Sequence record: PZ445416.1
Reading direction: 5' to 3' (one strand)
Length of the DNA: 50,192 nt
Source: a phage
Both the position numbers and the translations under genes were made by a program. Positions 6,106 to 46,427 of the stretch are shown piece after piece (the first letter of the stretch is position 1; every line of letters starts with the position of its first letter). The notes beneath the pieces are model-generated. The model saw nothing but the letters and a program-made list of their open reading frames with translations. It ran no database searches and was not told the DNA's origin.

Positions 6106-6126
6106 CATAAAAACACTTTGACGCTT

Positions 6127-6141
6127 TAACAAAAAGTGCTA
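6127..6141 (-). promoter_or_regulatory. isolated Box-A site (reverse orientation) before major capsid gene
   Basis: Minus strand TAGCACTTTTTGTTA between paralog B stop and terminator 6150-6177; no -10 at the cassette position. Confidence 0.45.
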
Positions 6142-9825: not shown

Positions 9826-9850
9826 GGGGGCTTGCGCCCCCTTATTCATT
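9826..9850 (+). terminator. terminator-like hairpin after major tail gene
   Basis: GGGGGCTTGCGCCCCC hairpin followed by a weak T-rich run (TTATTCATTTC). Confidence 0.5.
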
Positions 9851-9889
9851 TCTGTAAAATCATCTTATCAACTTTATTCGATTAACTTT

Positions 9890-9904
9890 TAACAAAAAGT
9901 GCCA
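9890..9904 (-). promoter_or_regulatory. isolated Box-A-like site (reverse orientation) before tail chaperone gene
   Basis: Minus strand TGGCACTTTTTGTTA (one arm mismatch) immediately before the CCAATCAGGAG leader of the chaperone gene. Confidence 0.4.
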
Positions 9905-9926
9905 TCAACCAATCAGGAGAAACATC

Positions 9927-10244
9927 ATGGCTAAATTCAATTTCGTGTTGGGCCAGCTTCCAGACTTCAAACTTCCGGTGACGTTCACCATGCCAAACGG
10001 CGAGGATGCGACTATTATTTTTACAGTGCGCCACCTTTCCAGTAAAGAAGTGCAAGATATGTATGCGAAGCAGGGCGAAATGAATGATAGCGATTTCATC
10101 ACTAAGATCGCGTCAGGCTGGAATCTGGAAGAAGAATTTAACGAAGAGAATGCGCGCAAACTGGTACAGTATTATCCTTCCGCAGCATACAATCTGACGG
10201 CAACTTACATCAAGGCGCTCGCCGGACACCGAGCAAAAAACTAA
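9927..10244 (+). CDS. tail assembly chaperone (G-like)
   Basis: 105 aa, acidic, immediately upstream of the tape measure; ends in slippery heptamer A_AAA_AAC. Confidence 0.7.
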   Translation: MAKFNFVLGQLPDFKLPVTFTMPNGEDATIIFTVRHLSSKEVQDMYAKQGEMNDSDFITKIASGWNLEEEFNEENARKLVQYYPSAAYNLTATYIKALAGHRAKN

Positions 10245-10561
10245 AAAGGGCGGTTTATCTGTTATATCAGAAACCGCCGACAGAAGAGCAATTGCGATCG
10301 GTTGGCCTCAGTCTTTCTGACTATGAAGACGAGGAACCGGAAACGATAATCGGCGATACTGAAATGGTGAAGGCGTGGAATGTTTTTACGTCAATGCTCA
10401 CTCAGTGGAGAAGTTCAGGCGCTGGAGCTTATGGCCTTGACTATAATGTTTTGCCTATGTTGTTCAAAATCTATAAAATAGAAGATGAAGAACTGGCATT
10501 GCAGGACGTTAGGATCATGGAAGCGAAAGCGCTTGAAATGATTGCTAAGCAAAACAACTAA
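9927..10561 (+). CDS. tail assembly chaperone, -1 frameshift fusion product (G-T-like)
   Basis: The -1 frame is open from the slippery site (10235-10241) through 10561; an 8-bp stem GGCGGTTT/AAACCGCC begins 7 nt downstream. Confidence 0.55.
10235..10278 (+). other. programmed -1 ribosomal frameshift site (slippery heptamer plus stem-loop)
   Basis: A_AAA_AAC at 10235-10241 in the zero frame; stem 10249-10256 pairs with 10271-10278 around a 14-nt loop. Confidence 0.6.
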
Positions 10562-10600
10562 GCCGCCGTTTGGCGGTTTTTTCGTATATAGGGGGGTTAT

Positions 10601-13474
10601 ATGGTTGATAAGGTAGCAGGTCTGTCGCTTGACGTTGATGTGTCAACAGTGCAGCGCGCCGTCAAGTCACTGAAAGAGTTTTCAAAGGCCAACGACCAGG
10701 CCGCTGATTCTATGGGTTCTTTAATCAATGAGTCAGAGGTTGCAAAACAGAAGGCCAAAGAACACGCTGAACAACTCAAGCGCCAGAGAAAAGAGTATGA
10801 GGCCGTGGAGAAGGCAATCGATCCTACAGTATCAAAAATGGAAAGGTTGAAGATTGCGTCTCAGCAGCTTGATAAACTCTGGCAGCAGGGAGTCGTTCCG
10901 GATGAGACATTTTTCCGTTTGGGTGAAATGCTGGATCTGCAAAACGCAAAACTTGCTCGCAGCCGGGCTATGCTTACGGAAGAAGGTCAGGCGGCATTGC
11001 AGGAAGCGAAAGCAAAAGAGCAGGCGGCAGCACGAAGCAAGGCGTTCATGGATGCCCTGAATGGTCAAGTTAATGCGATCGGCAAGACTCATGCTGAATT
11101 GATGGAACTGAAAGCGGCTGAGCTTGGTTTATCGAAAGAAGCAGCACCACTAATCGCAAAACTTAAAGATCAAGGCCGGGCTATGAATGCAGCAGGTATT
11201 AGCGCCGGGGAATACAGGCAAGCAATGCGAATGCTTCCTGCACAGATTACCGACGTTGTTACATCTCTTGCGTCAGGTATGCCAGTTTGGATGGTTGCCA
11301 TCCAGCAAGGCGGTCAAATCAAGGACTCGTTCGGCGGGATCGGGAATACGTTTAAGGTATTGCTCAGCTATATTAATCCGGTCACAGTTGGCGTTGGTGT
11401 TCTTGTCGGTTCTTTAGGTCTTCTTGCGAAAGCTGGTTATGACTCTTACAAGTCAATAACCGATATGCAGAATGCGCTTATTGAGACTGGCGGTTATGCA
11501 GGTGTTACGGCTGAAGATCTTGATTCAGTGTCTAAAAAGATCGCGCAGACAAGTAACTCAACCATTGGGAGTATTCGCGAGATTGTAACGGAGTTGGCAA
11601 GTTCTGGTAAGTACACCCGAGAGCAGATCCAGAACATCACTAAGGCTACCGCAGAGTGGTCAGCGTCAACAGGAAAATCAGCAAGTCAAATTATTGCTGA
11701 GTTCGACAAAATCGCAAGTGATCCGGTAAAAGGTCTGAAGAAGTTAAACGAGCAATATAATTTCCTTGAAAAAGGGCAGCTTACCTATATCGATACATTA
11801 AGCCGGACGAAAGGAGAAACTGAGGCTGTATCAGAGGCTACCAAACTATTCGCAGACGTAATGGAAAAGCGAATGAAGTCGATCGCGGATAACGCTACTC
11901 CTCTGGAAAAGATGTGGAGCGATATTAAACAATGGGCTTCGGACGCGTGGGGATGGGTTGGTGATCATACGCTTGGTGCGCTAAACCTGATTATCGACGT
12001 TGTTCAGGGTACAGTGATTCAGGTTAAAATGATTCTTGCGAAGGGTGATGAGTACATCTCAAATTTTATCGCCTCAGCCATAAAGGCAACTCAGTCACTG
12101 CCTGGAATGAGTGATTTCGGCGCTGATGTGCTGAAGGAGCAGGAGAACATTGTAAAAAGTTCTCGCGACAACTACGATCAGTTAGCTTCAGAGCTTGACG
12201 CTATTAACGCTCGCGTAGAAAAAGGCGAGATGGGATACGTTGAAGCGATGAAGCAGCGTCGCACTCTTGAAAAGCAGTACAGCGAGGAAACTAAGGAAGC
12301 AATAAGGAAAGAAGCAGAAGAGATCGAGAAGCGAAACCGAGAACGAAATAAGCAGTCGAAAATTGTGCGCTCACCGACAGAGCAATTCGACAAGGAGTTA
12401 ATTTCACTCAAGGCTCAACTTAAGGTATTGCAGGAGCACAAGGAGATCGGTCAAAAACTTTCCGCGCAGAGAAAAGCGCTGTTTACGACCGAGGCGACGA
12501 TTGCTGTTCTTCGTGAAGCCAGTTCCAAGCGTCAGTTGTCTGCGGAAGAAAAAGCATTGTTGGCAAGTCAGGAGAAGGTTGTAGAACTTGCTAAACAGAA
12601 GGCTGAGATTGGCGATCAGATTGTCAAGCAACAGCAGTTGAACGCACTTACCGACAAATCACTGAAGTTTGTCAATGAGATGACGGCGGCGACGGAACAG
12701 CTTAACGCTTCACGAGGTCTTAGTACTCGCGACATGGAACGACAAGCTGAACTAGCTAAAATCACCACTGATTACATCAACTCCGGCGGCGGTGAAGGAG
12801 ACGAAAAACTCCAGAACATGATTAAGGCGCAAAATGATTACTACGCTGCGGAAGATGCCAAGCGAGCTGACTGGTTGGCAGGTGCTGAAAGTGCTTTTGC
12901 TGATTACGGTGATGCAGCAATGGATATGTACGGCAATGTTAACGAGATCGCGTCAAGTGCCCTTAACGGAATGTCAGATATGATGGTTCAATTTCTGACC
13001 ACAGGAAAAGCGAACTTTGAGGACTTTGCGAAAAATATCATCGGCATGATTATAAAGATGATTGCTCAGATGGTAATCTTCAATACGATCTCAGGCATGA
13101 TGGGCGGTAAGACGTGGAGCTTTGCTGGAGGGGCGTCGTCTGGTGCTTCTGCGGCATCACAGGCAACCCCTACGCCTGCCGTCTCTGGTTTTAGGTCTTT
13201 ATCTTCAGGCGTCGCTGTTACCTCGCTTGCTGCCGCTGCGGGTAGTGTTGCAACATCTGGATTTAACGCATCTAAATCAGCACCGAAGGCAGCAAACCAA
13301 TCAGCAGGCGGGACGGTCGTTGATGTTAGGGGTATGGAGGTTAAGGTTGATAACGGTTCAGATCCGAGAGGAATTTCTCAGGGCGTAGAAATGATGTTCA
13401 AAAAAATGATTCGCGAGTCTTGTTCGCAGGGCGGTGAGGTTTATAATTACATTCAGGAAAAAACAGGAGGCTAA
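10601..13474 (+). CDS. tail tape measure protein
   Basis: 957 aa, long coiled-coil-rich middle, Gly/Ala/Ser-rich hydrophobic C-terminal segment, canonical position after the chaperones. Confidence 0.85.
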
Positions 13475-14692: not shown

Positions 14693-15423
14693 TTAGTGCA
14701 AAAATTAAACTTGAAATTATGACTCACGCTCAGGAAGAATACCCCCGCGAATGCTGCGGGGTAGTCACCCAAAAGGGCCGCGTGCAAAAATACCATCGCA
14801 TTGATAATGTGCATCGTGATCCCGAGAATCATTTCATGATGGATGCTGTACAATACGCTTGCATTGAGGACGATGCGGAATCAACAACAATAGCAATTGT
14901 TCACAGCCACACAGGAGACGGGGCTACAACTCTACCAAGCGCTCACGATACGTGCATGTGCAACGAGATGGAAGTTACCTGGATTATTGTTAGTGTGCCG
15001 GAAGGGGATATGCGATTTGTGAAGCCGGAGAAATTGCCTCTGATTGGTCGTCCGTGGTCATTAGGTTCATTCGACTGTTACGGTCTTGTTATGGCGTGGC
15101 ACAAAGAGCACGGCGTAGAATTGCGCGATCGCCGATTGAATTTTGAATGGTGGAAACCTGAGTACGGAATTAATCTCTATCAGGATTATTACAAGCAGGA
15201 TGGCTTCGTTGAGATTCCAGATCAGAATAATCCGTCATTCGGTGATATGGTAATCATGCAGATAGGGCAAAACGTTCCGGTATGGAACCATGCAGGGATT
15301 TACCTGGGAGATAATCAGATCTTGCATCATGCCTTCGGCAAGCTATCTCGTCGTGATATTTATTCCGGATGGTATCAGGATCATACTGTTTTAATCGTTC
15401 GCCATAAGGATCTTAAATTATGA
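14689..15423 (+). CDS. tail tip assembly protein (lambda K-like: MPN/JAB plus NlpC/P60)
   Basis: JAMM-like HSHTGDGATTLPSAHD; cysteine-peptidase-like DCYGLV plus downstream His; ATGA overlap with upstream gene. Confidence 0.75.
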   Translation: MISAKIKLEIMTHAQEEYPRECCGVVTQKGRVQKYHRIDNVHRDPENHFMMDAVQYACIEDDAESTTIAIVHSHTGDGATTLPSAHDTCMCNEMEVTWIIVSVPEGDMRFVKPEKLPLIGRPWSLGSFDCYGLVMAWHKEHGVELRDRRLNFEWWKPEYGINLYQDYYKQDGFVEIPDQNNPSFGDMVIMQIGQNVPVWNHAGIYLGDNQILHHAFGKLSRRDIYSGWYQDHTVLIVRHKDLKL

Positions 15424-23616: not shown

Positions 23617-25599
23617 TTACTTGTTTTCGATTAGTCTGTTAACCAACACTTCAAGCGCTGACAGTCTTGATTCAAGATCAGCGATCCTTTCCTTGTTCTG
23701 TTCATCACGAGCACGTAGCGCCTTGATTGCAGCAAGTCCATCTAAAAGCATTGGTGTCCGATCTAGGTGGTAGTACCCACCAATTAATTTGGTGTATTCC
23801 TTATCGATTCCTCGAATTTGTTGGCTGATAACACCCCTTCGGACAGTTGGCTCTTTATTTTGGTCCCTTTCTTCTTTAAACCGGAATAGTTTAAAGTCCA
23901 TGCGGTTAATGTTATCCAATGCCCCCTCGACGTTAAGATTACCAAGCACGTCTTTAAGACGTTCATCAGAGACTGCGCTCATAGTGTATTCCGACCACGG
24001 TTGCCACCCACCTTTGTTGGTGTTCACCCTTGAGTACGTGACGTTCCCTGTAGTGTAGTAGATCTGACGCCACCATACATCTTTCGGGTTATAGCTCCCT
24101 GGTAAGCTACCCTCCTTAAGACCCTGCGAGCAATAAGAGAAACAAGACCCGTAAGTGTCCGTGACAGGACCGTTAGCTGGGTTGCCAGCAACATACGACC
24201 AGCCCTGTGCAATATCGTCAAAGTTACCAAGCCATACGTCGTCACCATTCCACATCAAACCACCTTTTAGCGCTAACGATGTATCCGCACCTTCGACCCC
24301 CTCGATTTGTGGGAACTCAAGCCGCTGAAAGGTTCCGTTGCCGTCGTTGGCGCGGCGGTACAGGCGTACGATTCCGTCATCGTTTAGCTCAAGCGACATG
24401 TTATGGCGCATTGATGACGACTCAATGGTGTCGTTAGTGAGGCTGATTTTAGGCGAAGCATTCCCGCGTACCTTAACCATGCTCGACGCTCGCACTTCGC
24501 TCGGCCCGGATAATAGTCCATCCTCGTTATACGTGAGGTATGCGGTCTTTGCCGCTTCATGGTTCCCTGTAGAAATAGAGGTGGTGGATTTGCCGTCAAC
24601 CAGTTCGTTGTTAAACGTCGATTTTGTTAACAGCGCACCGCCCGCATCATTTCGGTGGGACTCCATGCCGCCGCCGTATGCAGTACCGTTCAGTTTTAGG
24701 TGCAAGGATTGGTGAGTTACGTTATCCGCGTCACCAAGCCCCACATTAGTTCGCGACGTCGGCAGATCAGCCAGGCCAGCCAGGTTGTCGGATTTAGTTA
24801 GCAGGTTTTCAGCATTAACGCTATTTGCTGCGTCTTTCGCTTCCTGAGCACTTACCGCCGCCGCATCTTTTGCGCTTACCGCATTGTCACGCGCTACCTG
24901 AGCGTCGTTTTTTGCAGAGGTTGCCGTTTGCGCTGCCGTTTGAGCGTCATTAACGTAACCTGACAGATCGCCTTTTGCGTCATTAATTGCCTGAATCGCC
25001 GCTGCCTCTTCTGTGTCAATGTGAGAGATAACAGATGATTCCTTAGATCCGATATTAGTAATAGCCTGATCTTTTGCCGCATTAATGCTATCTACAGCGC
25101 CGTCAACAATTTGCTGAGTCTGGTTCTTGATTGAGTTAGTTTCATCACGAGCCGCATTTGCTGCGTCACGAGCTAATTCAGATTGATTCTGAGCCGACTC
25201 TGCCGCCGATTTGTTCGCCTTAATTTCCTCAACGATACGGTTAAGGTTATCCATACCCAGATCTGCAATGATATCCATTGCCCCAGCAATCTCAGTCTCT
25301 TTACTTTGATAGTATCTAAGCGTCTCAGCAACGTTTTGAGCCAATCCATTAACGGTTAGTGAGTCGTTAAGCAGGATTACATACTTTCCGTCAGCGGCAG
25401 TCTGACCATCCGTAGAGATAGCCTTTAACTCTGTGTCACTCACAATATCGCTGATTACAGCCAGCTTAATTGGTTGCTCCAGGAATACGATAGTTGCACC
25501 GACTCGAATCAGAGCAAGCTGATCTTTCCATTTTGTATCGGTTCCGTGAACTGTGCCGTCTGCATCCATTGATGCCGTACCGCGTCGATATAAAGCCAT
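23617..25599 (-). CDS. tail fibre with C-terminal intramolecular chaperone (peptidase S74-like) domain
   Basis: 660 aa; C-terminus has SDERLKDV followed by a roughly 110-aa coiled-coil domain, matching the autocleavage motif of S74 chaperone domains. Confidence 0.75.
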   Translation of the reverse strand: MALYRRGTASMDADGTVHGTDTKWKDQLALIRVGATIVFLEQPIKLAVISDIVSDTELKAISTDGQTAADGKYVILLNDSLTVNGLAQNVAETLRYYQSKETEIAGAMDIIADLGMDNLNRIVEEIKANKSAAESAQNQSELARDAANAARDETNSIKNQTQQIVDGAVDSINAAKDQAITNIGSKESSVISHIDTEEAAAIQAINDAKGDLSGYVNDAQTAAQTATSAKNDAQVARDNAVSAKDAAAVSAQEAKDAANSVNAENLLTKSDNLAGLADLPTSRTNVGLGDADNVTHQSLHLKLNGTAYGGGMESHRNDAGGALLTKSTFNNELVDGKSTTSISTGNHEAAKTAYLTYNEDGLLSGPSEVRASSMVKVRGNASPKISLTNDTIESSSMRHNMSLELNDDGIVRLYRRANDGNGTFQRLEFPQIEGVEGADTSLALKGGLMWNGDDVWLGNFDDIAQGWSYVAGNPANGPVTDTYGSCFSYCSQGLKEGSLPGSYNPKDVWWRQIYYTTGNVTYSRVNTNKGGWQPWSEYTMSAVSDERLKDVLGNLNVEGALDNINRMDFKLFRFKEERDQNKEPTVRRGVISQQIRGIDKEYTKLIGGYYHLDRTPMLLDGLAAIKALRARDEQNKERIADLESRLSALEVLVNRLIENK

Positions 25600-25620: not shown

Positions 25621-25635
25621 TAGCACGAATTGCTA
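25621..25635 (+). promoter_or_regulatory. isolated Box-A site
   Basis: TAGCACGAATTGCTA between tail fibre start and primase terminator; only a weak hexamer (TATGAG) at the 22-bp position and no plus-strand gene downstream. Confidence 0.45.
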
Positions 25636-25673
25636 AACACAGATTTTATCATTGCTCTATGAGTCTTGCAACG

Positions 25674-25702
25674 GGCAATAAAAAACCGCCCGAAGGCGGT
25701 TA
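25674..25702 (-). terminator. rho-independent terminator after primase (minus strand)
   Basis: Minus strand CCGCCTTCGGGCGG hairpin then TTTTTTATT, immediately after the primase stop. Confidence 0.7.
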
Positions 25703-26635
25703 GAGTAGGTCACTTGCTGAGAATAACTTAGCTTGCATTCCTGAACGGTATCCTCCAGGATTCGGGATAATTATTTTTAATTGCCTGTCGTCAGCCATGT
25801 ATAAAGTCTCCTTATCTGAAGGTTCGCACGCCACTCTTACCTCGCGATCTCCTTTGTATCTGTACGCAACCATTTCGAGATTTTCAGGAGTGAAGCAGGC
25901 CCACACCTCTTGCTTTGTGTGAAATGCAATATGCTGAGCATCAATCCAATTAAGGCATAAGTAGATCGCTTTTTCAGTTTTACCAGTCACGGCAACCGAG
26001 CAACTTGTGTATTTCTTAGCGTAAAATGACTCCCTTCCTTCCTCATCAATAATCAAAATATTGCAAAACTCATCATCAAGACCGTCCTCGTGTACAAGTT
26101 GACATGGTATGGTGTGAAATACGCTCTCCCCGCCATCGTCGCGACGTTTTACGCCAACGTCGAATGATTCAGTAGGTAGCGACTCAAACATGCTTAGAGG
26201 CGTCTTTACGCGCTTCTCTGTGCGCTCCATGACTTTCATCACCGCTTCATGATCTGCCATCATGACATTGACACCAGATACCGGAGTTCGGCGCGCTTTC
26301 TTGTTTGCCTTGACGATGTATTCCTGCGGAACTTTTCCGAGAAATCTTCCCAATATATTTATGCATTCGCTATACGGCATACCAGTTAATTTCATCAACC
26401 AACCGATCCCGGAGTCGTTACCGCATGAGTTGCAGATTGCACCGCCGTCTCCTGGGGTATTCAGGTTGTCGGTCCAGCGAAAACGGTCTTTACCTCCACA
26501 GTTGGGGCAAGGTTGATGCTTCTTGTTGAATACCTCGTTAGGCAATCCGCAGACTGACTGAAAAGCCTCACGCCATAACCCCTTCATATACGGCAAGACG
26601 TCCTCTTTCTGAAACATCATAAACTCTTCGTTCAC
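25700..26635 (-). CDS. DNA primase
   Basis: N-terminal zinc-binding motif CPNCGG...CNSCG followed by a Toprim-like acidic region; adjacent to helicase. Confidence 0.65.
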   Translation of the reverse strand: MNEEFMMFQKEDVLPYMKGLWREAFQSVCGLPNEVFNKKHQPCPNCGGKDRFRWTDNLNTPGDGGAICNSCGNDSGIGWLMKLTGMPYSECINILGRFLGKVPQEYIVKANKKARRTPVSGVNVMMADHEAVMKVMERTEKRVKTPLSMFESLPTESFDVGVKRRDDGGESVFHTIPCQLVHEDGLDDEFCNILIIDEEGRESFYAKKYTSCSVAVTGKTEKAIYLCLNWIDAQHIAFHTKQEVWACFTPENLEMVAYRYKGDREVRVACEPSDKETLYMADDRQLKIIIPNPGGYRSGMQAKLFSASDLL

Positions 26636-26651
26636 TTCCAGATCTCCAAAT

Positions 26652-26696
26652 AAAAAACGCGTAGAAGGATGTTAACCCGCTACGCGTCGTTTGTTT
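26652..26696 (-). terminator. terminator/attenuator-like hairpin between HTH gene and primase
   Basis: Minus strand stem CGCGTAG / CTACGCG with 15-nt loop followed by TTTTTTA; long loop makes it weak. Confidence 0.4.
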
Positions 26697-27148
26697 TAAC
26701 TAAAAATGCTATTCGTCGTTCCAATATCTTCCTTCTTCACGACTCGCATAAACTTCTTGTTTTTGCATCGCTTCTCAAGGCACTTTCCGTTCCCATCAAA
26801 CTTCAGATCGAATCGTAGCCATGCCGCCCGGAATCCTTTGCAACCCTGTCGGCGGTAAGCACGATGCGCTGCTTCAGCGCCTTGCCATGAAATCATATTG
26901 CGATCTTTCCAGCCTTGCACCGTCTGATTGCTAACTTTTAGAGCCTTTGCGCAGGCCGCAGGACCACCGTAATATTCGATAAGAGCATCCAATCGCGCTC
27001 TCAGTCCTGCGCGCGTTTCTTCTTTATGGATATAAAATCCGCAGCGCTGGCGAGGCTTTTTATCTTTACCGCGTCGTGTTCCGTTGTTACCATTGATGTG
27101 ACGTTTATCGATTTCACCAGTAGACTCTGCGATACGTTTCATATTCAT
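26696..27148 (-). CDS. HTH DNA-binding protein (YdaS/Cro-like)
   Basis: Start moved to MNMKR after AGGAG; segment GGPAACAKALKVSNQTVQGWK resembles YdaS/XRE-type helix-turn-helix; basic N-terminus. Confidence 0.5.
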   Translation of the reverse strand: MNMKRIAESTGEIDKRHINGNNGTRRGKDKKPRQRCGFYIHKEETRAGLRARLDALIEYYGGPAACAKALKVSNQTVQGWKDRNMISWQGAEAAHRAYRRQGCKGFRAAWLRFDLKFDGNGKCLEKRCKNKKFMRVVKKEDIGTTNSIFS

Positions 27149-27161
27149 CTTAATTCTCCTG

Positions 27162-27204
27162 TAGCACTTTTTGCTAAAAACGTTTACTGTATGCCGTGTA
27201 TTAT
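27162..27204 (+). promoter_or_regulatory. Box-A cassette (putative phage promoter/operator) upstream of helicase
   Basis: TAGCACTTTTTGCTA, 22 bp, TATTAT; in the divergent gap between the HTH gene and helicase. Confidence 0.6.
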
Positions 27205-27242
27205 ATCGTAAACGATACAACGATTCAAAGGATTAAATAGCC

Positions 27243-29261
27243 GTGACAATTAACATCAAAAAGCAAATCGCATTACTTGGCGAGGACTATATAAAACGCA
27301 CTCAAGAACGATTCACTGTTGGTGAGGTCGTTCCGTATCCGTACCAGGTTGTTGCTTATGCTGAGATCGCAAAACGCCTATCAAATTATGAGCATCCATT
27401 CTTTGTTAAAGCGTCAGTATCGGCGGGTAAGACCATCATTTTTGCTATGGTTGCAAAGCAGTGTCAAAAAATGGGCTTGAAAATGCTTGTGCTGGCACGC
27501 CAGGGTGAGATTGTCGATCAGGATAGTGAAGAGATCGACAATTTCGGGGTGACTAACTCTATATTCTCAGCGTCACTTGGAATCAAGTCTTGCTACTTCC
27601 CGATCGTGGTAGGCTCTGAGGGTACTGTTGCAAATGGTTTAAATAATGAGCTAGCTGATTTTGTCCCTCACGTAATCGGGATAGATGAATGTCACCAGGT
27701 GGATTGGGAAGACCTTGCACAAGCCATAGATGGCAAGGAAACGATGGAACAGATGCGGGAAGAGAAGGGAAAAATCATTATGGAAGGGGGGATTTCTCTG
27801 ATTGGTAATGATGGGAAGCCTTTACTTGGAACTAAGCGAAGCCAGTACACGATCGTAATAATGGAGATGATGCGTCGCTGTAAAGAGGTTCACGGGCATG
27901 ACCTAAGAATATTTGGTATGACGGGATCTGAATTTCGCGGCGTTGTTCCTATTCTTGTTGAGAATCCAAAGGCGTTAGGATTCTGGCGCGAGCGCGTTAC
28001 TGATATTGACACCAACTACCTCATTGAGTTTGGCTCTGTCGTTCCGACGATATTCGGTTCAACGGATGGCGCTCACTACGATCTGGATAAGTTCAAAGCG
28101 TCAAGCGAGGACGGCGTTCAGGACTTTACAGAGAAAGATATGAAAGCGATGGAAGATGAAATTCTTCATGACAAATCTCTGACTCAGCGAATCATGCAAA
28201 TGGTCGCCAAAAAGGCTGAAGAGCGCAACGCGGTCCTGATTACATGTGCCGGGGTGCGTCACTGTAAAGAGGCAGCGGCGGCACTTCCTCCAGGAAGCAC
28301 CTATGCAATCATCACTGGAGATACAGACACCAAAACTCGCAAGAAGATTCTGGACGATGTGAGGTCCGGGAAGATTAAATACACCTTTCAGGTAATGGCT
28401 CTCACGACTGGCGTTAACGTTCCAAATTGGGATTTCAGTGTCATACTTCGCAAAATAGGATCACTCACGCTGTTGATTCAACTTTTGGGTAGGGGTATGC
28501 GATTGCTTAAATCCTGGCAGGTTGCTGAAGGAATGGTTAAGCAAGATCATCTTGTATGGGATTTCGCTGGCACTATGGATGAGTTGGGGCAACTTTATTT
28601 CGATCCTATACTTGAGCAGGCTCAATTCCAAAAGCGTTTTGAAAATGGCAAAGACCCGAAAACGTGTCCGAAGTGTGGTTGCGTAAATAGCTTCTACGCT
28701 CGCCGATGCGTTAACGTTATCGATGGTGAGCGTTGTGATCATTTCTGGACTTCTCAGATTTGCGAGGACCAGGTGGATGAGCGAACCGGGAAAATCCTTG
28801 TCAAAGGGTGTGGTGCCGAGAATGACGTTGTCGCCCGAGTTTGTCGTTGCTGTGATGTGTCACTTGTCGATCCTAACCTGAAATTGTCCGGCAAGGCGTA
28901 CACCAAGAATGACTGGTACGAGGTAAAGAATTTTGAGGTAACGCTAACCAAAAACCAAAAGGGTGTGATATACAAATACACACTGATTAACGATGATGGT
29001 GATGAGTTCAAGGCGTATGAAAAGTTCTTCCCCGAGTCTGACTCTAAGATTTGCGGTACACTATGGAAAACTAAAGGTGTATTGCCACACGTATCAGATC
29101 CTAAAATGCGCCGCTACTTTATCGGAATGAAGAACGCCATCAAGATCGTGCAATACGCACATCATATTGCTCACCCGGTGCGCGTAACTCATCGTCGCAA
29201 CCAGAAGAAAGAAGATATTATTAGTCGGAAGGATTTTGGAATGGAGGATATCCCGGAATGA
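27243..29261 (+). CDS. DExH-box DNA helicase
   Basis: GTG start; Walker A SAGKTII and motif II GIDECHQ; C-terminal Cys clusters (CPKCGC, CRCC) suggest a zinc finger. Confidence 0.8.
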   Translation: MTINIKKQIALLGEDYIKRTQERFTVGEVVPYPYQVVAYAEIAKRLSNYEHPFFVKASVSAGKTIIFAMVAKQCQKMGLKMLVLARQGEIVDQDSEEIDNFGVTNSIFSASLGIKSCYFPIVVGSEGTVANGLNNELADFVPHVIGIDECHQVDWEDLAQAIDGKETMEQMREEKGKIIMEGGISLIGNDGKPLLGTKRSQYTIVIMEMMRRCKEVHGHDLRIFGMTGSEFRGVVPILVENPKALGFWRERVTDIDTNYLIEFGSVVPTIFGSTDGAHYDLDKFKASSEDGVQDFTEKDMKAMEDEILHDKSLTQRIMQMVAKKAEERNAVLITCAGVRHCKEAAAALPPGSTYAIITGDTDTKTRKKILDDVRSGKIKYTFQVMALTTGVNVPNWDFSVILRKIGSLTLLIQLLGRGMRLLKSWQVAEGMVKQDHLVWDFAGTMDELGQLYFDPILEQAQFQKRFENGKDPKTCPKCGCVNSFYARRCVNVIDGERCDHFWTSQICEDQVDERTGKILVKGCGAENDVVARVCRCCDVSLVDPNLKLSGKAYTKNDWYEVKNFEVTLTKNQKGVIYKYTLINDDGDEFKAYEKFFPESDSKICGTLWKTKGVLPHVSDPKMRRYFIGMKNAIKIVQYAHHIAHPVRVTHRRNQKKEDIISRKDFGMEDIPE

Positions 29262-30703: not shown

Positions 30704-30737
30704 TTGCTAAAACTACCCGGCGAAAGTCGGGTATAGT
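30695..30737 (+). promoter_or_regulatory. Box-A cassette
   Basis: CAGCACTAATTGCTA, 22 bp containing hairpin ACCCGGCGAAAGTCGGGT, TATAGT; upstream stop TAA is inside the box. Confidence 0.6.
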
Positions 30738-31539: not shown

Positions 31540-32691
31540 ATGTCACAATCTAAAATCACTACCGAGCAACTTATCGAAGAACGCATGAACGGACTTACAC
31601 TTCGCGAGATCGCGGAAAAGTACGGTATGCACATTCGCACGGTTGAAGCTCGCCACGCAAAATTGGCAAAAGAAGGCCACTTCCACGGTAACGAGCATGT
31701 CGCTAAGAACGTACCGGAAGGATTCATGGTAAAAGGTACATCAACGATGATTCGCGGAGATGGGACCGAGGTAGTGCGCTGGGTTAAAACCGATCAGGAC
31801 CGTGAGAAGATCGCGGCAATGATGGAAGCGGCGCGCATTGCATTCTGTGAAGACCTGCCGCGAGCAAAGCCAACCGAGCTACTAGCCTCGCAAGGGCTTA
31901 CGACAGCGATGGGTAAGTTGGCGCTCTATCCGGTGTTCGATCTTCATATTGGTGCGCTTGCTCATAAGCATGAATGCGGTGAGAACTATTCCACCGACGT
32001 AGCGGAAAAAGTGCTTAGCGACTTCTTTAATTACGCGATCGATATCGCGCCGAACGCAGAGAAGGCTGTTCTGTTAATCGGCGGCGACTTCCTTCACTCT
32101 GACGGCCTTGATGCAGTTACCCCGGCAAGTGGTCACGTTCTTGATCAGGACTCACGATACGCAAAATTAGTTCATGTTGCGATTCGTTCGGTACGCCGAG
32201 CCATCGACAAAATGCTTATGAAACACAAAGAAGTCGAGGTCCAGGTTATCGAAGGGAACCACGATCAGTCTGGGATGATTTGGCTGCGAGCTGCAATGTC
32301 GGCATATTATGAAGACGAGCCGCGAGTATTCGTTGACGTTAGTCCTATGATTCTGCATAAGACTCGTTGGGGAAATACCTTGCTGGGATACACTCACGGG
32401 CACACTATGAAAAAGGCAGACACGCGACTTGCAGCAATGGCGGCAGATTTCCGGTCAGACTTCGGTGAGAGCAAGTATGTGTATACTCATAGCGGTCACT
32501 GGCATCACCAGACAATCACTGAGCACTCGCTTGGTATTGATGAAGTACACGGTCAGTTAGGCGCGAAAGATGCATACGCCGCGCGAGGCGGGTGGCGCTC
32601 ATATCGCCAGGCGGCGGTAATAGTTTACGATAAACAGTTTGGTGAAATCGGTCGATTCATCTACCGTCCAGAAATGACAGGATCGCACTAA
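31540..32691 (+). CDS. metallophosphoesterase with N-terminal HTH domain
   Basis: N-terminal LTLREIAEKYGMHIRTVEARHAKL is HTH-like; calcineurin-type motifs GGDFLHSDG, EGNHDQ, GHTHG and GHWHH. Confidence 0.65.
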   Translation: MSQSKITTEQLIEERMNGLTLREIAEKYGMHIRTVEARHAKLAKEGHFHGNEHVAKNVPEGFMVKGTSTMIRGDGTEVVRWVKTDQDREKIAAMMEAARIAFCEDLPRAKPTELLASQGLTTAMGKLALYPVFDLHIGALAHKHECGENYSTDVAEKVLSDFFNYAIDIAPNAEKAVLLIGGDFLHSDGLDAVTPASGHVLDQDSRYAKLVHVAIRSVRRAIDKMLMKHKEVEVQVIEGNHDQSGMIWLRAAMSAYYEDEPRVFVDVSPMILHKTRWGNTLLGYTHGHTMKKADTRLAAMAADFRSDFGESKYVYTHSGHWHHQTITEHSLGIDEVHGQLGAKDAYAARGGWRSYRQAAVIVYDKQFGEIGRFIYRPEMTGSH

Positions 32692-32725
32692 TTGCTAAAG
32701 ATACCCGAATCCCTTCGGGTATAGT
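32683..32725 (+). promoter_or_regulatory. Box-A cassette
   Basis: TCGCACTAATTGCTA, 22 bp with perfect IR ATACCCGAA/TTCGGGTAT, TATAGT. Confidence 0.6.
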
Positions 32726-39130: not shown

Positions 39131-39173
39131 ATTATGCCAAATCACACCGATCGAGTTTTAACAAAAAGTGCTA
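39131..39173 (-). promoter_or_regulatory. Box-A cassette (minus strand)
   Basis: Minus strand TAGCACTTTTTGTTA (stop of the methyltransferase-like gene inside box), 22 bp, CATAAT, leader CCTCATCGAAACGAGA. Confidence 0.6.
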
Positions 39174-42096: not shown

Positions 42097-42134
42097 TACC
42101 CCATCAAAACGAGATACCAATCAGAGGATTCACC

Positions 42135-44363: not shown

Positions 44364-44403
44364 CACGAATTGCTAAACCTTCCGCAAGGCCATTTGATAT
44401 AGT
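44361..44403 (+). promoter_or_regulatory. Box-A cassette
   Basis: TAGCACGAATTGCTA, 22 bp with IR AAGGCCA/TGGCCTT, TGaTATAGT. Confidence 0.6.
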
Positions 44404-44443
44404 GGCCTTATTGAAGCAAGGCAACCAATCAGAGGAATCAGCT

Positions 44444-45720: not shown

Positions 45721-45923
45721 CAGCAGAAGATGCAGCGCGTGACGCAGTGGAAGGAATGCGCCCAAATACCTCCAGAATCGCACACTACTACAAATCTGAG
45801 GTGTCGGCAGTGCAATTGGTCCACGAAATTTTAATGCTACCACAAGTCGATTCAGCGCGCGTGGTGACGTGCTTAAAAAATTATTTTTGCATCACTATTA
45901 AAACGAATAGCACGAATTGCTAA
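45705..45923 (+). CDS. hypothetical protein
   Basis: 72 aa; stop TAA lies inside Box A at 45908-45922. Confidence 0.35.
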   Translation: MATIMTAEDAARDAVEGMRPNTSRIAHYYKSEVSAVQLVHEILMLPQVDSARVVTCLKNYFCITIKTNSTNC

Positions 45924-45950
45924 AACCTATCAAGGTGAATGCGCTATGAT
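45908..45950 (+). promoter_or_regulatory. Box-A cassette
   Basis: TAGCACGAATTGCTA, 22 bp, TATGAT. Confidence 0.6.
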
Positions 45951-45980: not shown

Positions 45981-46427
45981 ATGAAACACTTAATCTGCAT
46001 TGAAGCGCCTAACGATGAATACACTCTGCACGGCATTGGAATGTTCAAAGGTCACTACATGACAGCAAGTATTCATGATTCGCGTTGCGTCAATGGCGAT
46101 CTGATGATTACGTCAAAAGAAGTAAATCCGTACATTATGCAGAATCTTGGCAATAACGAATATATGGCCTATGGATGCAACGCAGTGTATAAGCACATTA
46201 AGATCCGCAAGCGCGTCGTGCGTGCATTCAAGAAGATTGCAATGAAGTACTGGAAGATGAGCAAGAAGGACGCCGGGCGCTGGGCGCGTAATGTTGCTGA
46301 CGCATACTTCTACCGTAACGGTGAGTCCTGCTACTTCCTGATCGATGAAATTATGGAAAACTACGGCGGCGACTTCAGCCAGTGCAGCTTTGACGATTGG
46401 GTTAATTATGAGATCAGTTGCTGGTAA
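45981..46427 (+). CDS. hypothetical protein
   Basis: Start moved to MKHLI after ACGAGGAAACG; Cys/Tyr/Trp-rich; stop followed immediately by Box A at 46428. Confidence 0.5.
   Translation: MKHLICIEAPNDEYTLHGIGMFKGHYMTASIHDSRCVNGDLMITSKEVNPYIMQNLGNNEYMAYGCNAVYKHIKIRKRVVRAFKKIAMKYWKMSKKDAGRWARNVADAYFYRNGESCYFLIDEIMENYGGDFSQCSFDDWVNYEISCW

Follow-up and report, generated by a model that had tools for sequence, protein, structure and literature searches.

The gene lying between the primase and helicase genes of this T1-like phage is very probably the ortholog of pir of phage T1, provided with a predicted promoter and terminator of its own. What is new in this analysis is the local anatomy, namely divergent promoters with overlapping predicted -10 hexamers on one side of the gene and, on the other, a terminator loop that holds a -10-like hexamer of the primase gene. 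Box A, the repeat found in the gap between pir and the helicase gene, is a genome-wide promoter element and not a private operator of that gap. Throughout, the window is the whole stretch of 50,192 nucleotides that was analysed (PZ445416.1).

Identity and setting of the pir gene

The pir ortholog occupies positions 26696..27148 of the minus strand (150 aa, with the stop counted in the span) and starts with an ATG at 27148; a longer, TTG-initiated reading of the frame, to 27220, is mechanical only. The protein sequence begins MNMKRIAESTGEIDKRHINGNNGTRRGKDKKPR. A Shine-Dalgarno sequence, AGGAGA (27155..27160, minus strand), lies 6 nt ahead of the ATG, and the corresponding TTCTCC block is kept in the gap alignment. 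The gene sits upstream of the DNA primase gene (25700..26635, minus strand, GTG start), which encodes a Zn_Ribbon_Prim domain, and is divergent from a superfamily-2 helicase gene (27243..29261, plus strand, GTG start at 27243). A sequence-only reading had placed a gene of about 150 aa here, divergent from the helicase, and such a gene is present; the span given for it, 26652-27204, covers more than the gene, adding the terminator and the greater part of the control region.

The product was 145/150 identical to T1 ST23 (Orf23 = Pir, YP_003922; 97%, E=4e-113, aligned over 150/150 residues), which RefSeq labels "transcriptional regulator", and it matched PHROG 2856, "transcriptional regulator", with E=3.6e-76. 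The pir sgRNA of Laganenka et al. 2019 maps exactly within ST23. The phage studied here is a Tunavirus of the Shigella/Escherichia type represented by Sfin-1 and phi2457T, not T1 itself, and 901 bases at the locus are 99.9% identical to those two Shigella phages. The window protein and T1 Pir are equally long and differ by five conservative substitutions; in both phages the gene stands between primase and helicase, and the gap sequence is the same, Box A and overlapping -10 hexamers included. Judged by sequence, no functional difference between the two would be expected.

Homologs of pir were found by tblastn in 824 phage records, every inspected one of which was from Drexlerviridae. Among 1.8 billion representative proteins searched, only 26 matched at E<=1e-3, so that the family is narrow and apparently core to Drexlerviridae. 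The order primase-pir-helicase was seen in the annotated genomes of T1, KP36, and Vc1, and in distant loci with called genes. Scanning viral_contigs and metagenome_contigs did not pick up the most distant relatives of Pir, and the distant loci were recovered by exact-sequence look-up.

Much is already published on the T1 protein. Laganenka et al. 2019 (PMC6737242) renamed T1 orf23 Pir, for "prophage induction regulator"; the lysogeny context of that work is unusual for T1. In their GFP reporters, Pir activated Phol and Pdam and repressed its own promoter and PrecE (PMC6737242). These effects could be indirect, because Pir was expressed from a plasmid and assayed in uninfected cells (PMC6737242). 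The same study described a second T1 regulator, Orf65, which represses Ppir and activates its own promoter, reported Porf65 to be Pir-independent, and found that cAMP-CRP represses Ppir, Pdam, and PrecE (PMC6737242). We looked in that paper for a Pir binding site, an EMSA, or a footprint and found none reported, and our search of the later literature for a definition of the Pir binding site likewise found none. A CRP-like site at 27128-27143 (2 mismatches) was dropped, as reading the T1 sequence indicated that it is not conserved there; it also lies partly outside the published reporter fragment.

Autoregulation of T1 Pir is thus in the literature, and the corresponding finding in the window was already known. 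The sequence-only proposal of a Cro/YdaS-type helix-turn-helix protein that serves the phage as a transcription factor and regulates its own gene gains support through the 97%-identical T1 Pir and is not new. As it stands, the finding matters little, as the gene is a RefSeq-annotated regulator whose T1 ortholog has been characterized, autorepression included.

Architecture and conservation of Pir

Pir comprises a basic arm (residues 1-35), a helix-turn-helix core, and a C-terminal extension. The basic N-terminus was confirmed, with a net charge of +7 over residues 1-40, and the pI of the whole protein is 10.2. An AF2 model (24 homologs) was confident at residues 36-140 and disordered at residues 1-35. 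The modeled core helices (43-60, 63-70, 74-83, and 88-100) superpose on all-alpha Cro proteins, and Pir has a five-helix all-alpha fold in which helices 2-3 form the helix-turn-helix. Its Pfam scores are sub-threshold, at 23.3 against 30.2 bits for P22_Cro (PF14549) and 19.2 against 30 bits for YdaS (PF15943). Precomputed matches to PF15943/PF14549 are present on many Pir homologs.

The comparison set consisted of Xfaso-1 Cro (3bd1), N15 Cro (2hin/6on0), and P22 Cro (1rzs), together with YdaS (8c7k), and sequence identity of these proteins to Pir is only 12-21%. Unlike them, Pir has an extra, conserved basic arm of 35 residues and a C-terminal extension of 40 residues, acts as an activator as well as a repressor, and comes from virulent-type T1-like phages without an adjacent partner CI repressor. 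A zinc site in the C-terminal region was considered and rejected, the cysteines not being conserved as a set.

The best-conserved part of the protein is the disordered arm, STGEIDKRxxNGNNGTRRGKDKKPR, with a mean majority fraction of 0.86 against 0.59 for the recognition helix. Within it, the family-wide motif NGNNGTRRGKD includes NGNNGT(R/K)RG, at residues 19-27 of the window protein, which is invariant in Pir alignment A1 and kept down to 36% identity, with the exception of protein P0048.

Overlapping divergent promoters predicted in the pir-helicase gap

The gap between pir and the helicase gene measures 94 nt and holds three overlapping signals. The first is a sigma70-type promoter for pir (27200..27228, minus strand), composed of TTGAAT (27228..27223), a 17-nt spacer, and TATAAT (27205..27200), a 10/12 match; its equivalent is annotated as a promoter in phages SA30RD and KP36. 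The second is a -10-like hexamer for the helicase, TATTAT (27199..27204, plus strand), and the third is a Box A of the T type, TAGCACTTTTTGCTAAA (27162..27178, plus strand), a dyad TAGCA-N5-TGCTA that points to the helicase. The presence of Box A in the shared gap agrees with the sequence-only reading. The helicase hexamer begins exactly 22 nt past the TGCTA of this box, and it occupies the same six to seven base pairs as the pir -10, on the opposite strand. Downstream of the helicase -10 come a leader, an AAAGG ribosome-binding site, and the helicase GTG. If each transcript is assumed to start ~7 nt past its predicted -10, an assumption on which the following positions depend, the helicase start would be at ~27211 (plus strand) and the pir start at ~27193 (minus strand). 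The dyad centre of the gap box would then lie at ~-42 from the helicase start, and the box itself would cover ~+16 to +32 of the pir transcript, in its 5' UTR, with a single base between it and the Shine-Dalgarno sequence of pir.

This layout is conserved. The order pir ATG, Shine-Dalgarno, T-type Box A, 22 nt, GTATTATA, AAAGG, and helicase start is kept in 40/41 distinct gap sequences, drawn from 52 recovered loci, with locus L036 as the exception, and also in 4/5 very distant relatives; in the fifth, L061, TAGCAT replaces the shared -10. The sequence GTATTATA around the helicase -10 is itself conserved family-wide. Box A alone shows the same 40/41 count (absent from L036) and is found in all the distant loci, L057-L061. 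Given an intact dyad spacer, the gap box is of the T type, with one departure (CGATTAG, in L051), and T-type gap boxes also occur in relatives at 36-44% identity. The published annotation of phage TLS contains only three sigma70-type promoters genome-wide, one of which, P57, drives the Pir homolog gp57 (PMC11447400); the TLS stretch from P57 to the start of gp57 contains repeat DR11.

Sequence and comparison together point to pir being read from its own conventional sigma70 promoter and the helicase being driven by the gap Box A cassette. Because the pir and helicase -10 hexamers overlap on opposite strands, RNA polymerase probably occupies just one of the two promoters at a time. Anything occupying Box A or firing the helicase promoter would be predicted to turn pir down, given a box in the pir 5' UTR beside the ribosome-binding site. 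Autorepression could then follow either of two routes: a protein on the gap Box A, which covers +16 to +32 of the pir transcript, may act as a roadblock, or polymerase may be recruited to the helicase promoter, whose -10 would exclude the pir -10. Either route would explain why Ppir is repressed in reporters by both Pir and Orf65.

A second gene shares this layout. A sigma70-like promoter for the tail-fibre gene (25671..25643) is followed by a reversed Box A at 25621-25637, ahead of the tail-fibre ribosome-binding site. As the tail-fibre gene has the same layout as pir, the comparison suggests that reversed Box A copies are used as negative elements.

A conserved terminator with a predicted primase -10 in its loop

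Downstream of pir, an intrinsic terminator (26647..26688, minus strand) is formed by the stem ACGCGTAG/CTACGCGT (26657-26664/26680-26687) followed by the U-run UUUUUUAUUU. The hairpin and T-tract reported earlier between pir and primase were recovered, and the 77-nt stretch holding the hairpin (26636-26712) folds at -23.1 kcal/mol with z=-4.2. In T1, SA30RD, and KP36, annotation records a rho-independent terminator at the equivalent hairpin. An RNAalifold consensus gave no pairs for the terminator, as MAFFT misregisters stems of different sequence, and folds were instead computed individually for 14 locus representatives. All 14/14 had a hairpin of -15.7 to -23.7 kcal/mol and a T-tract, with differing stem sequences. 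Because hairpin and T-tract are kept despite these differing stems, the pir hairpin is a real, conserved intrinsic terminator. The gene is accordingly laid out as a monocistronic unit, between its own predicted promoter and this terminator.

The same region carries signals for primase. A degenerate Box A, TAGCATTTTTAGTTAAA (26695..26711, minus strand, 2 mismatches), overlaps the last pir codons and stop, and a -10-like hexamer, TAACAT (26669..26674, minus strand), lies 22 nt past it, in the terminator loop, which would put the primase start within 26660-26665 (minus strand). This primase Box A is at the same position in nearly all aligned loci, the clearest exception being L050, and TLS repeat DR10 is its equivalent. 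In most clades, the primase-box sequence AGC ACA AAT AGC TAA encodes the Pir C-terminal S-T-N-S-stop, and TAACAT, TATCAT, or TATTAT is found in the terminator loop. Past the hairpin come the U-run, GGAG, and then the primase GTG. Box A, a hairpin with the -10 in its loop, the T-tract, and the primase start are kept family-wide. We propose that pir transcription would end at the terminator and that the promoter within the hairpin can restart transcription for primase.

Box A as a genome-wide promoter element

The window holds 15 perfect copies of the Box A motif TAGCACNNNNTGYTAAA and 8 with one mismatch, where shuffled sequences lead one to expect 0 and 0.05. T1 has 26 matches at <=2 mismatches, Klebsiella phage KP36 has 14 copies against 0.11 expected, and Vibrio phage Vc1 has 13; overall, the Drexlerviridae examined all carry it, at ~25 copies per genome. 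Box A also ranked first among the dyads in nearly all 52 loci. A -10-like hexamer lies exactly 22 nt past TGYTA in 18/23 of the window copies, and Box A lies ~-42 from the predicted start at ~20 promoters, including the Pir-activated Pdam. The TTGCTA within the motif cannot serve as a -35, because 22 nt to the -10 is too far.

The repeat itself is already in the literature. Box A is the 21-nt direct repeat aaATAGCACnnnTTGnTAAAA of TLS, T1, Rtp, and Rogue1, with A, T, and G subtypes (PMC11447400); T-type boxes carry CTTTTTG, and the G type is TAGCACGAATTGCTAAA. For its function, the TLS authors listed a stoperator, an enhancer site, and an UP element as candidates (German, Misra, Kropinski et al. 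2024, PMC11447400), and they drew no link between the repeat and Pir. To their description, we add that a -10 hexamer follows at a fixed 22 nt, that reversed copies lie downstream of the pir and tail-fibre sigma70 promoters, and that the motif is invariant over Webervirus, Jhansiroadvirus, and distant metagenomic relatives. One apparent variant, in locus L055, with a 4-nt spacer, had suggested covariation of protein and site; it was rejected as the product of an error-ridden assembly, the contig having frameshifts in both pir and helicase and homopolymers shortened from T5 to T4.

T1-like phages form a very large family, as the number of records with Pir homologs indicates, and include many therapeutic candidates. 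Most of their early and middle genes are driven from these ~25 promoters, which have no -35 and an invariant dyad 22 nt from the -10, and the family-wide comparison narrows who may read Box A.

Candidate readers of Box A

The sequence-only reading took Box A to be Pir's own target beside its gene. In that form the proposal is not supported, as Box A is distributed genome-wide and the published reporter responses fit it only in part. Scored with a Box A PWM, the T-type box of Pdam reaches 32.2 bits and that of Ppir, which lies past the promoter, 28.9 bits; both agree with Pir acting through Box A. Phol (-0.2 bits) and PrecE (0.7 bits), which respond to Pir, are instead at background, and the Pir-independent Porf65 carries a perfect, G-type Box A (32.3 bits) at the same position as in Pdam. 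By eye, the only motifs other than Box A common to the four Pir-responsive T1 promoters were the 8-mer GTTGTAAC and the leader AAACGA, and both were rejected as a Pir motif, being at chance level or common to all cassettes.

We see an even chance that the reader of Box A is not Pir but host RNA polymerase, a conserved global regulator such as Lrp, or another conserved phage protein, and that Pir acts at other sites. The closeness of pir and Box A would then only reflect that nearly every early or middle gene has a box, and autorepression would run via a different operator or be indirect. By the reporter responses, Box A is neither necessary nor sufficient for an effect of Pir. Box A is also invariant over Escherichia, Klebsiella, and Vibrio phages and metagenomic relatives, and its 13 specified bases are unchanged where the Pir recognition helix is almost wholly replaced: helix 3 reads SNQTVQGWKDR in Pir and KRHRVARWVEK, NGLRMVLWKQK, NPLEYREMIRI, or DVCRLTNAYRL in other genomes with an identical Box A. 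The motif is unchanged as well in L060, whose Pir (P0048) is without the conserved N-terminal arm. Against this, Q75, Q/N78, W80, and R83 are kept in most Pir members, so a conserved specificity is still possible, and for that reason we give the helix-3 argument moderate, not decisive, weight.

ALTERNATIVES for the Box A reader included Orf65, an invariant host factor, and the T1 ST16 homolog. Orf65 was first considered because it fits the T1 reporters, activating its own Box A promoter and repressing Ppir. It was rejected as a general reader, as its homologs are in only 68 records and it has no homolog in KP36 (best tblastn E=0.53), though KP36 has 14 Box A copies. For a host factor, T-type Box A agrees with the E. 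coli Lrp consensus yAGhAwATTwTdCTr at 13/15 positions, for which the chance in a random 15-mer is 6.6e-5; this consensus, however, is one chosen among many possible, and the comparison covers only its published string. The literature that we looked over for phage-host genetics backing Lrp at Box A contained none. The T1 ST16 homolog (31540..32691), recovered in 53 of the sequences examined, has a sigma70-region-4-like helix-turn-helix ahead of a metallophosphoesterase domain. Its putative recognition helix shows much stronger conservation than the Pir helix; its helix-turn-helix matches are, however, below Pfam thresholds (E=0.01). The range of roles that the TLS authors listed for the repeat, as a stoperator, enhancer site, or UP element (PMC11447400), also leaves room for a reader other than Pir. 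A host factor or another conserved phage helix-turn-helix protein is a plausible reader of Box A.

That Pir itself reads Box A, at least the T-type boxes with CTTTTTG, we regard as a tentative proposal. A Pir dimer at ~-42 would take the place of the missing -35 contact and switch on cassettes including those of helicase and dam, as a class II activator such as lambda cI does at PRM. Sitting at once in the 5' UTR of pir, this dimer would also block the promoter of pir. Several features suit such a model. The dyad TAGCA-N5-TGYTA, with half-site centres 10 bp apart and a rigid 22 nt to the -10, would fit a Cro-type dimer. Pdam, with its T-type box, is activated by Pir, and Ppir, with a T-type box downstream of the promoter, is repressed; the unresponsive Porf65 has a G-type and not a T-type box. 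The box in the pir-helicase gap is of the T type in almost every clade, and wherever Box A was found, Pir was found too. Moreover, pir is among the few genes with a Box-A-independent sigma70 promoter, as would suit the first step of a cascade. The responses of Phol and PrecE, the independence of Porf65, and the constancy of Box A across diverged recognition helices count against the model, and the literature that we searched held no Pir-Box A binding experiment. Pir as the Box A reader is thus possible and disfavoured by the variation of its recognition helix, and direct binding of Pir to Box A appears rather unlikely on the sequences compared.

If Pir does read T-type Box A, the gap would be a one-operator bidirectional switch that turns the helicase on and pir off, a whole class of promoters in each Drexlerviridae genome would rely on a Cro-fold dimer in place of the -35 contact, and a 20-year-old repeat would become a defined, phage-wide activator regulon.

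It is highly improbable that the pir frame encodes something other than a transcription factor (a YdaS-like antitoxin or toxin partner, a homing endonuclease, or a replication accessory), as its weak Pfam match to the "YdaS_toxin" family and its place inside the primase-helicase replication module are outweighed by GFP reporter evidence of regulation for the 97%-identical T1 Pir (PMC6737242), by neighbours that are primase and helicase with no YdaT-like partner gene found, and by Pfam, PHROG, and fold searches that found no nuclease domain or fold, whether of HNH, GIY-YIG, or LAGLIDADG type.

Comparison with other phage regulatory systems

If a dimer binds Box A, its centre at ~-42 and the mutually exclusive divergent promoters would copy the logic by which lambda cI at OR2 activates PRM and represses PR, and if that dimer is Pir, a single protein would likewise have opposite effects on two back-to-back promoters. 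In contrast to lambda, the gap has one site, not three cooperative operators, and Box A is at ~25 promoters genome-wide, whereas the lambda sites are confined to the immunity region.

An analogy to the stoperators of mycobacteriophage L5 gp71 was raised by the TLS authors (PMC11447400). Like those stoperators and the MotA boxes of T4, Box A is a short motif repeated genome-wide, which in the two known systems is served by one phage DNA-binding protein. To our knowledge, neither L5 gp71 nor T4 MotA is homologous to Pir. MotA boxes have their centre at -30, and AsiA is required as a co-factor. Stoperators silence transcription from inside transcribed regions, whereas most Box A copies lie upstream of a -10, in an activator-like position.

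Candidate readers of Box A

Besides Pir (the phage T1 Orf23/ST23 protein), we considered other phage and host proteins that might recognize Box A, the promoter-linked dyad TAGCA-N5-TGCTA. The homolog of T1 ST16 (31540-32691, plus strand), assigned to PHROG 704 "DNA repair exonuclease," joins a metallophosphoesterase domain to an N-terminal helix-turn-helix (HTH) resembling sigma70-region-4/HTH_23 (residues 15-38, E = 0.01, sub-threshold). The protein was found in 53 sequences, and among these its putative DNA-reading helix, MHIRTVEARHAKLAK, shows strong conservation, far exceeding that of helix 3, the recognition helix of Pir. Because of this HTH and the much better conservation of its helix, the ST16 homolog is a candidate for the protein that reads the invariant Box A.

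Among host factors, Lrp is a lead only, arising from sequence likeness. In T-type Box A, the 15-bp core TAGCACTTTTTGCTA (e.g., 27162-27176) agrees with the SELEX consensus for Escherichia coli Lrp, yAGhAwATTwTdCTr, in 13 of its 15 positions, compared with 11 of 15 for G-type Box A. A match of at least 13/15 has a random probability of 6.6e-5, though Lrp is one consensus among many possible. Genetic support for a link between Lrp and Box A was sought, and none was found.

T1 Orf65 is a second regulator, which is reported to activate itself and repress Ppir, the pir promoter (PMC6737242). Its homolog here (45981-46427, plus strand; 88.5% identity) falls in PHROG 10642, a group with no assigned function, and its gene has a Box A at 45908-45924; no Pfam domain was found in the protein. 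Orf65 homologs are limited to 68 phage records, mainly Tunavirus, and Klebsiella phage KP36 has no Orf65 homolog yet contains Box A.

Sequence elements within Box A cassettes

Many Box A cassettes also contain a short G+C-rich inverted repeat, located within the 22-nt spacer or across the -10, with stem sequences that vary from cassette to cassette. Examples lie at 30712-30737, 32700-32725, and 44386-44409, the last having the stem AAGGCC/GGCCTT around TATAGT (44398-44403). These repeats are similar to the pre-primase terminator, which has a promoter in its loop, but most copies are missing the T-tract. Downstream of the -10, most cassettes share a conserved leader, (C)ATCGAAACGA, as seen at 42097-42113, at 27205-27217, and in the minus-strand cassettes at 39157 and 34446. 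The variant ATCGTAAACGA occurs at the helicase gene and at T1 recE, and in the divergent pir-helicase gap it forms a perfect 14-bp palindrome, TATCGTAAACGATA. The leader may be an initial transcribed sequence, an RNA element, or a protein site.

One of the homologous pir loci compared, L055 (IMGVR_UViG_2974632794_000001, 9850-12500), carries frameshifts in both pir and the helicase gene, has the helicase C-terminus in duplicate, and contains Box A copies with homopolymers shortened from T5 to T4. As such, this public viral contig looks like an error-rich assembly and is unsuitable for comparative work.

Box A copies overlapping or opposing genes

The primase Box A (26695-26711, minus strand) overlaps the 3ʹ end of the pir coding sequence, and in most clades the conserved end of Pir, S-T-N-S-stop, is specified by the box sequence AGC ACA AAT AGC TAA. 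It is therefore probably the DNA element, and not the protein, that accounts for the conservation of this disordered tail.

The tail-fiber gene (ATG at 25599, minus strand) is preceded by a sigma70-like promoter, TTGCAA-17-TAAAAT (25671..25643, minus strand). A perfect Box A, reversed relative to the gene (25621-25637, plus strand), lies between this promoter and the ribosome-binding site, immediately ahead of the latter; at pir, too, Box A follows a conventional promoter. Read along its own strand, the tail-fiber copy is directed antisense into the primase gene, with only a poor -10 (TATGAG).

Two further copies, at 6125-6141 and 9888-9904 (both minus strand), are antisense within the plus-strand structural gene module. 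Both have minus-strand equivalents in T1, at 15069 and 18833, and DR7 of TLS (negative strand) is a counterpart. These copies are candidate promoters of antisense RNA or, alternatively, candidate roadblocks.
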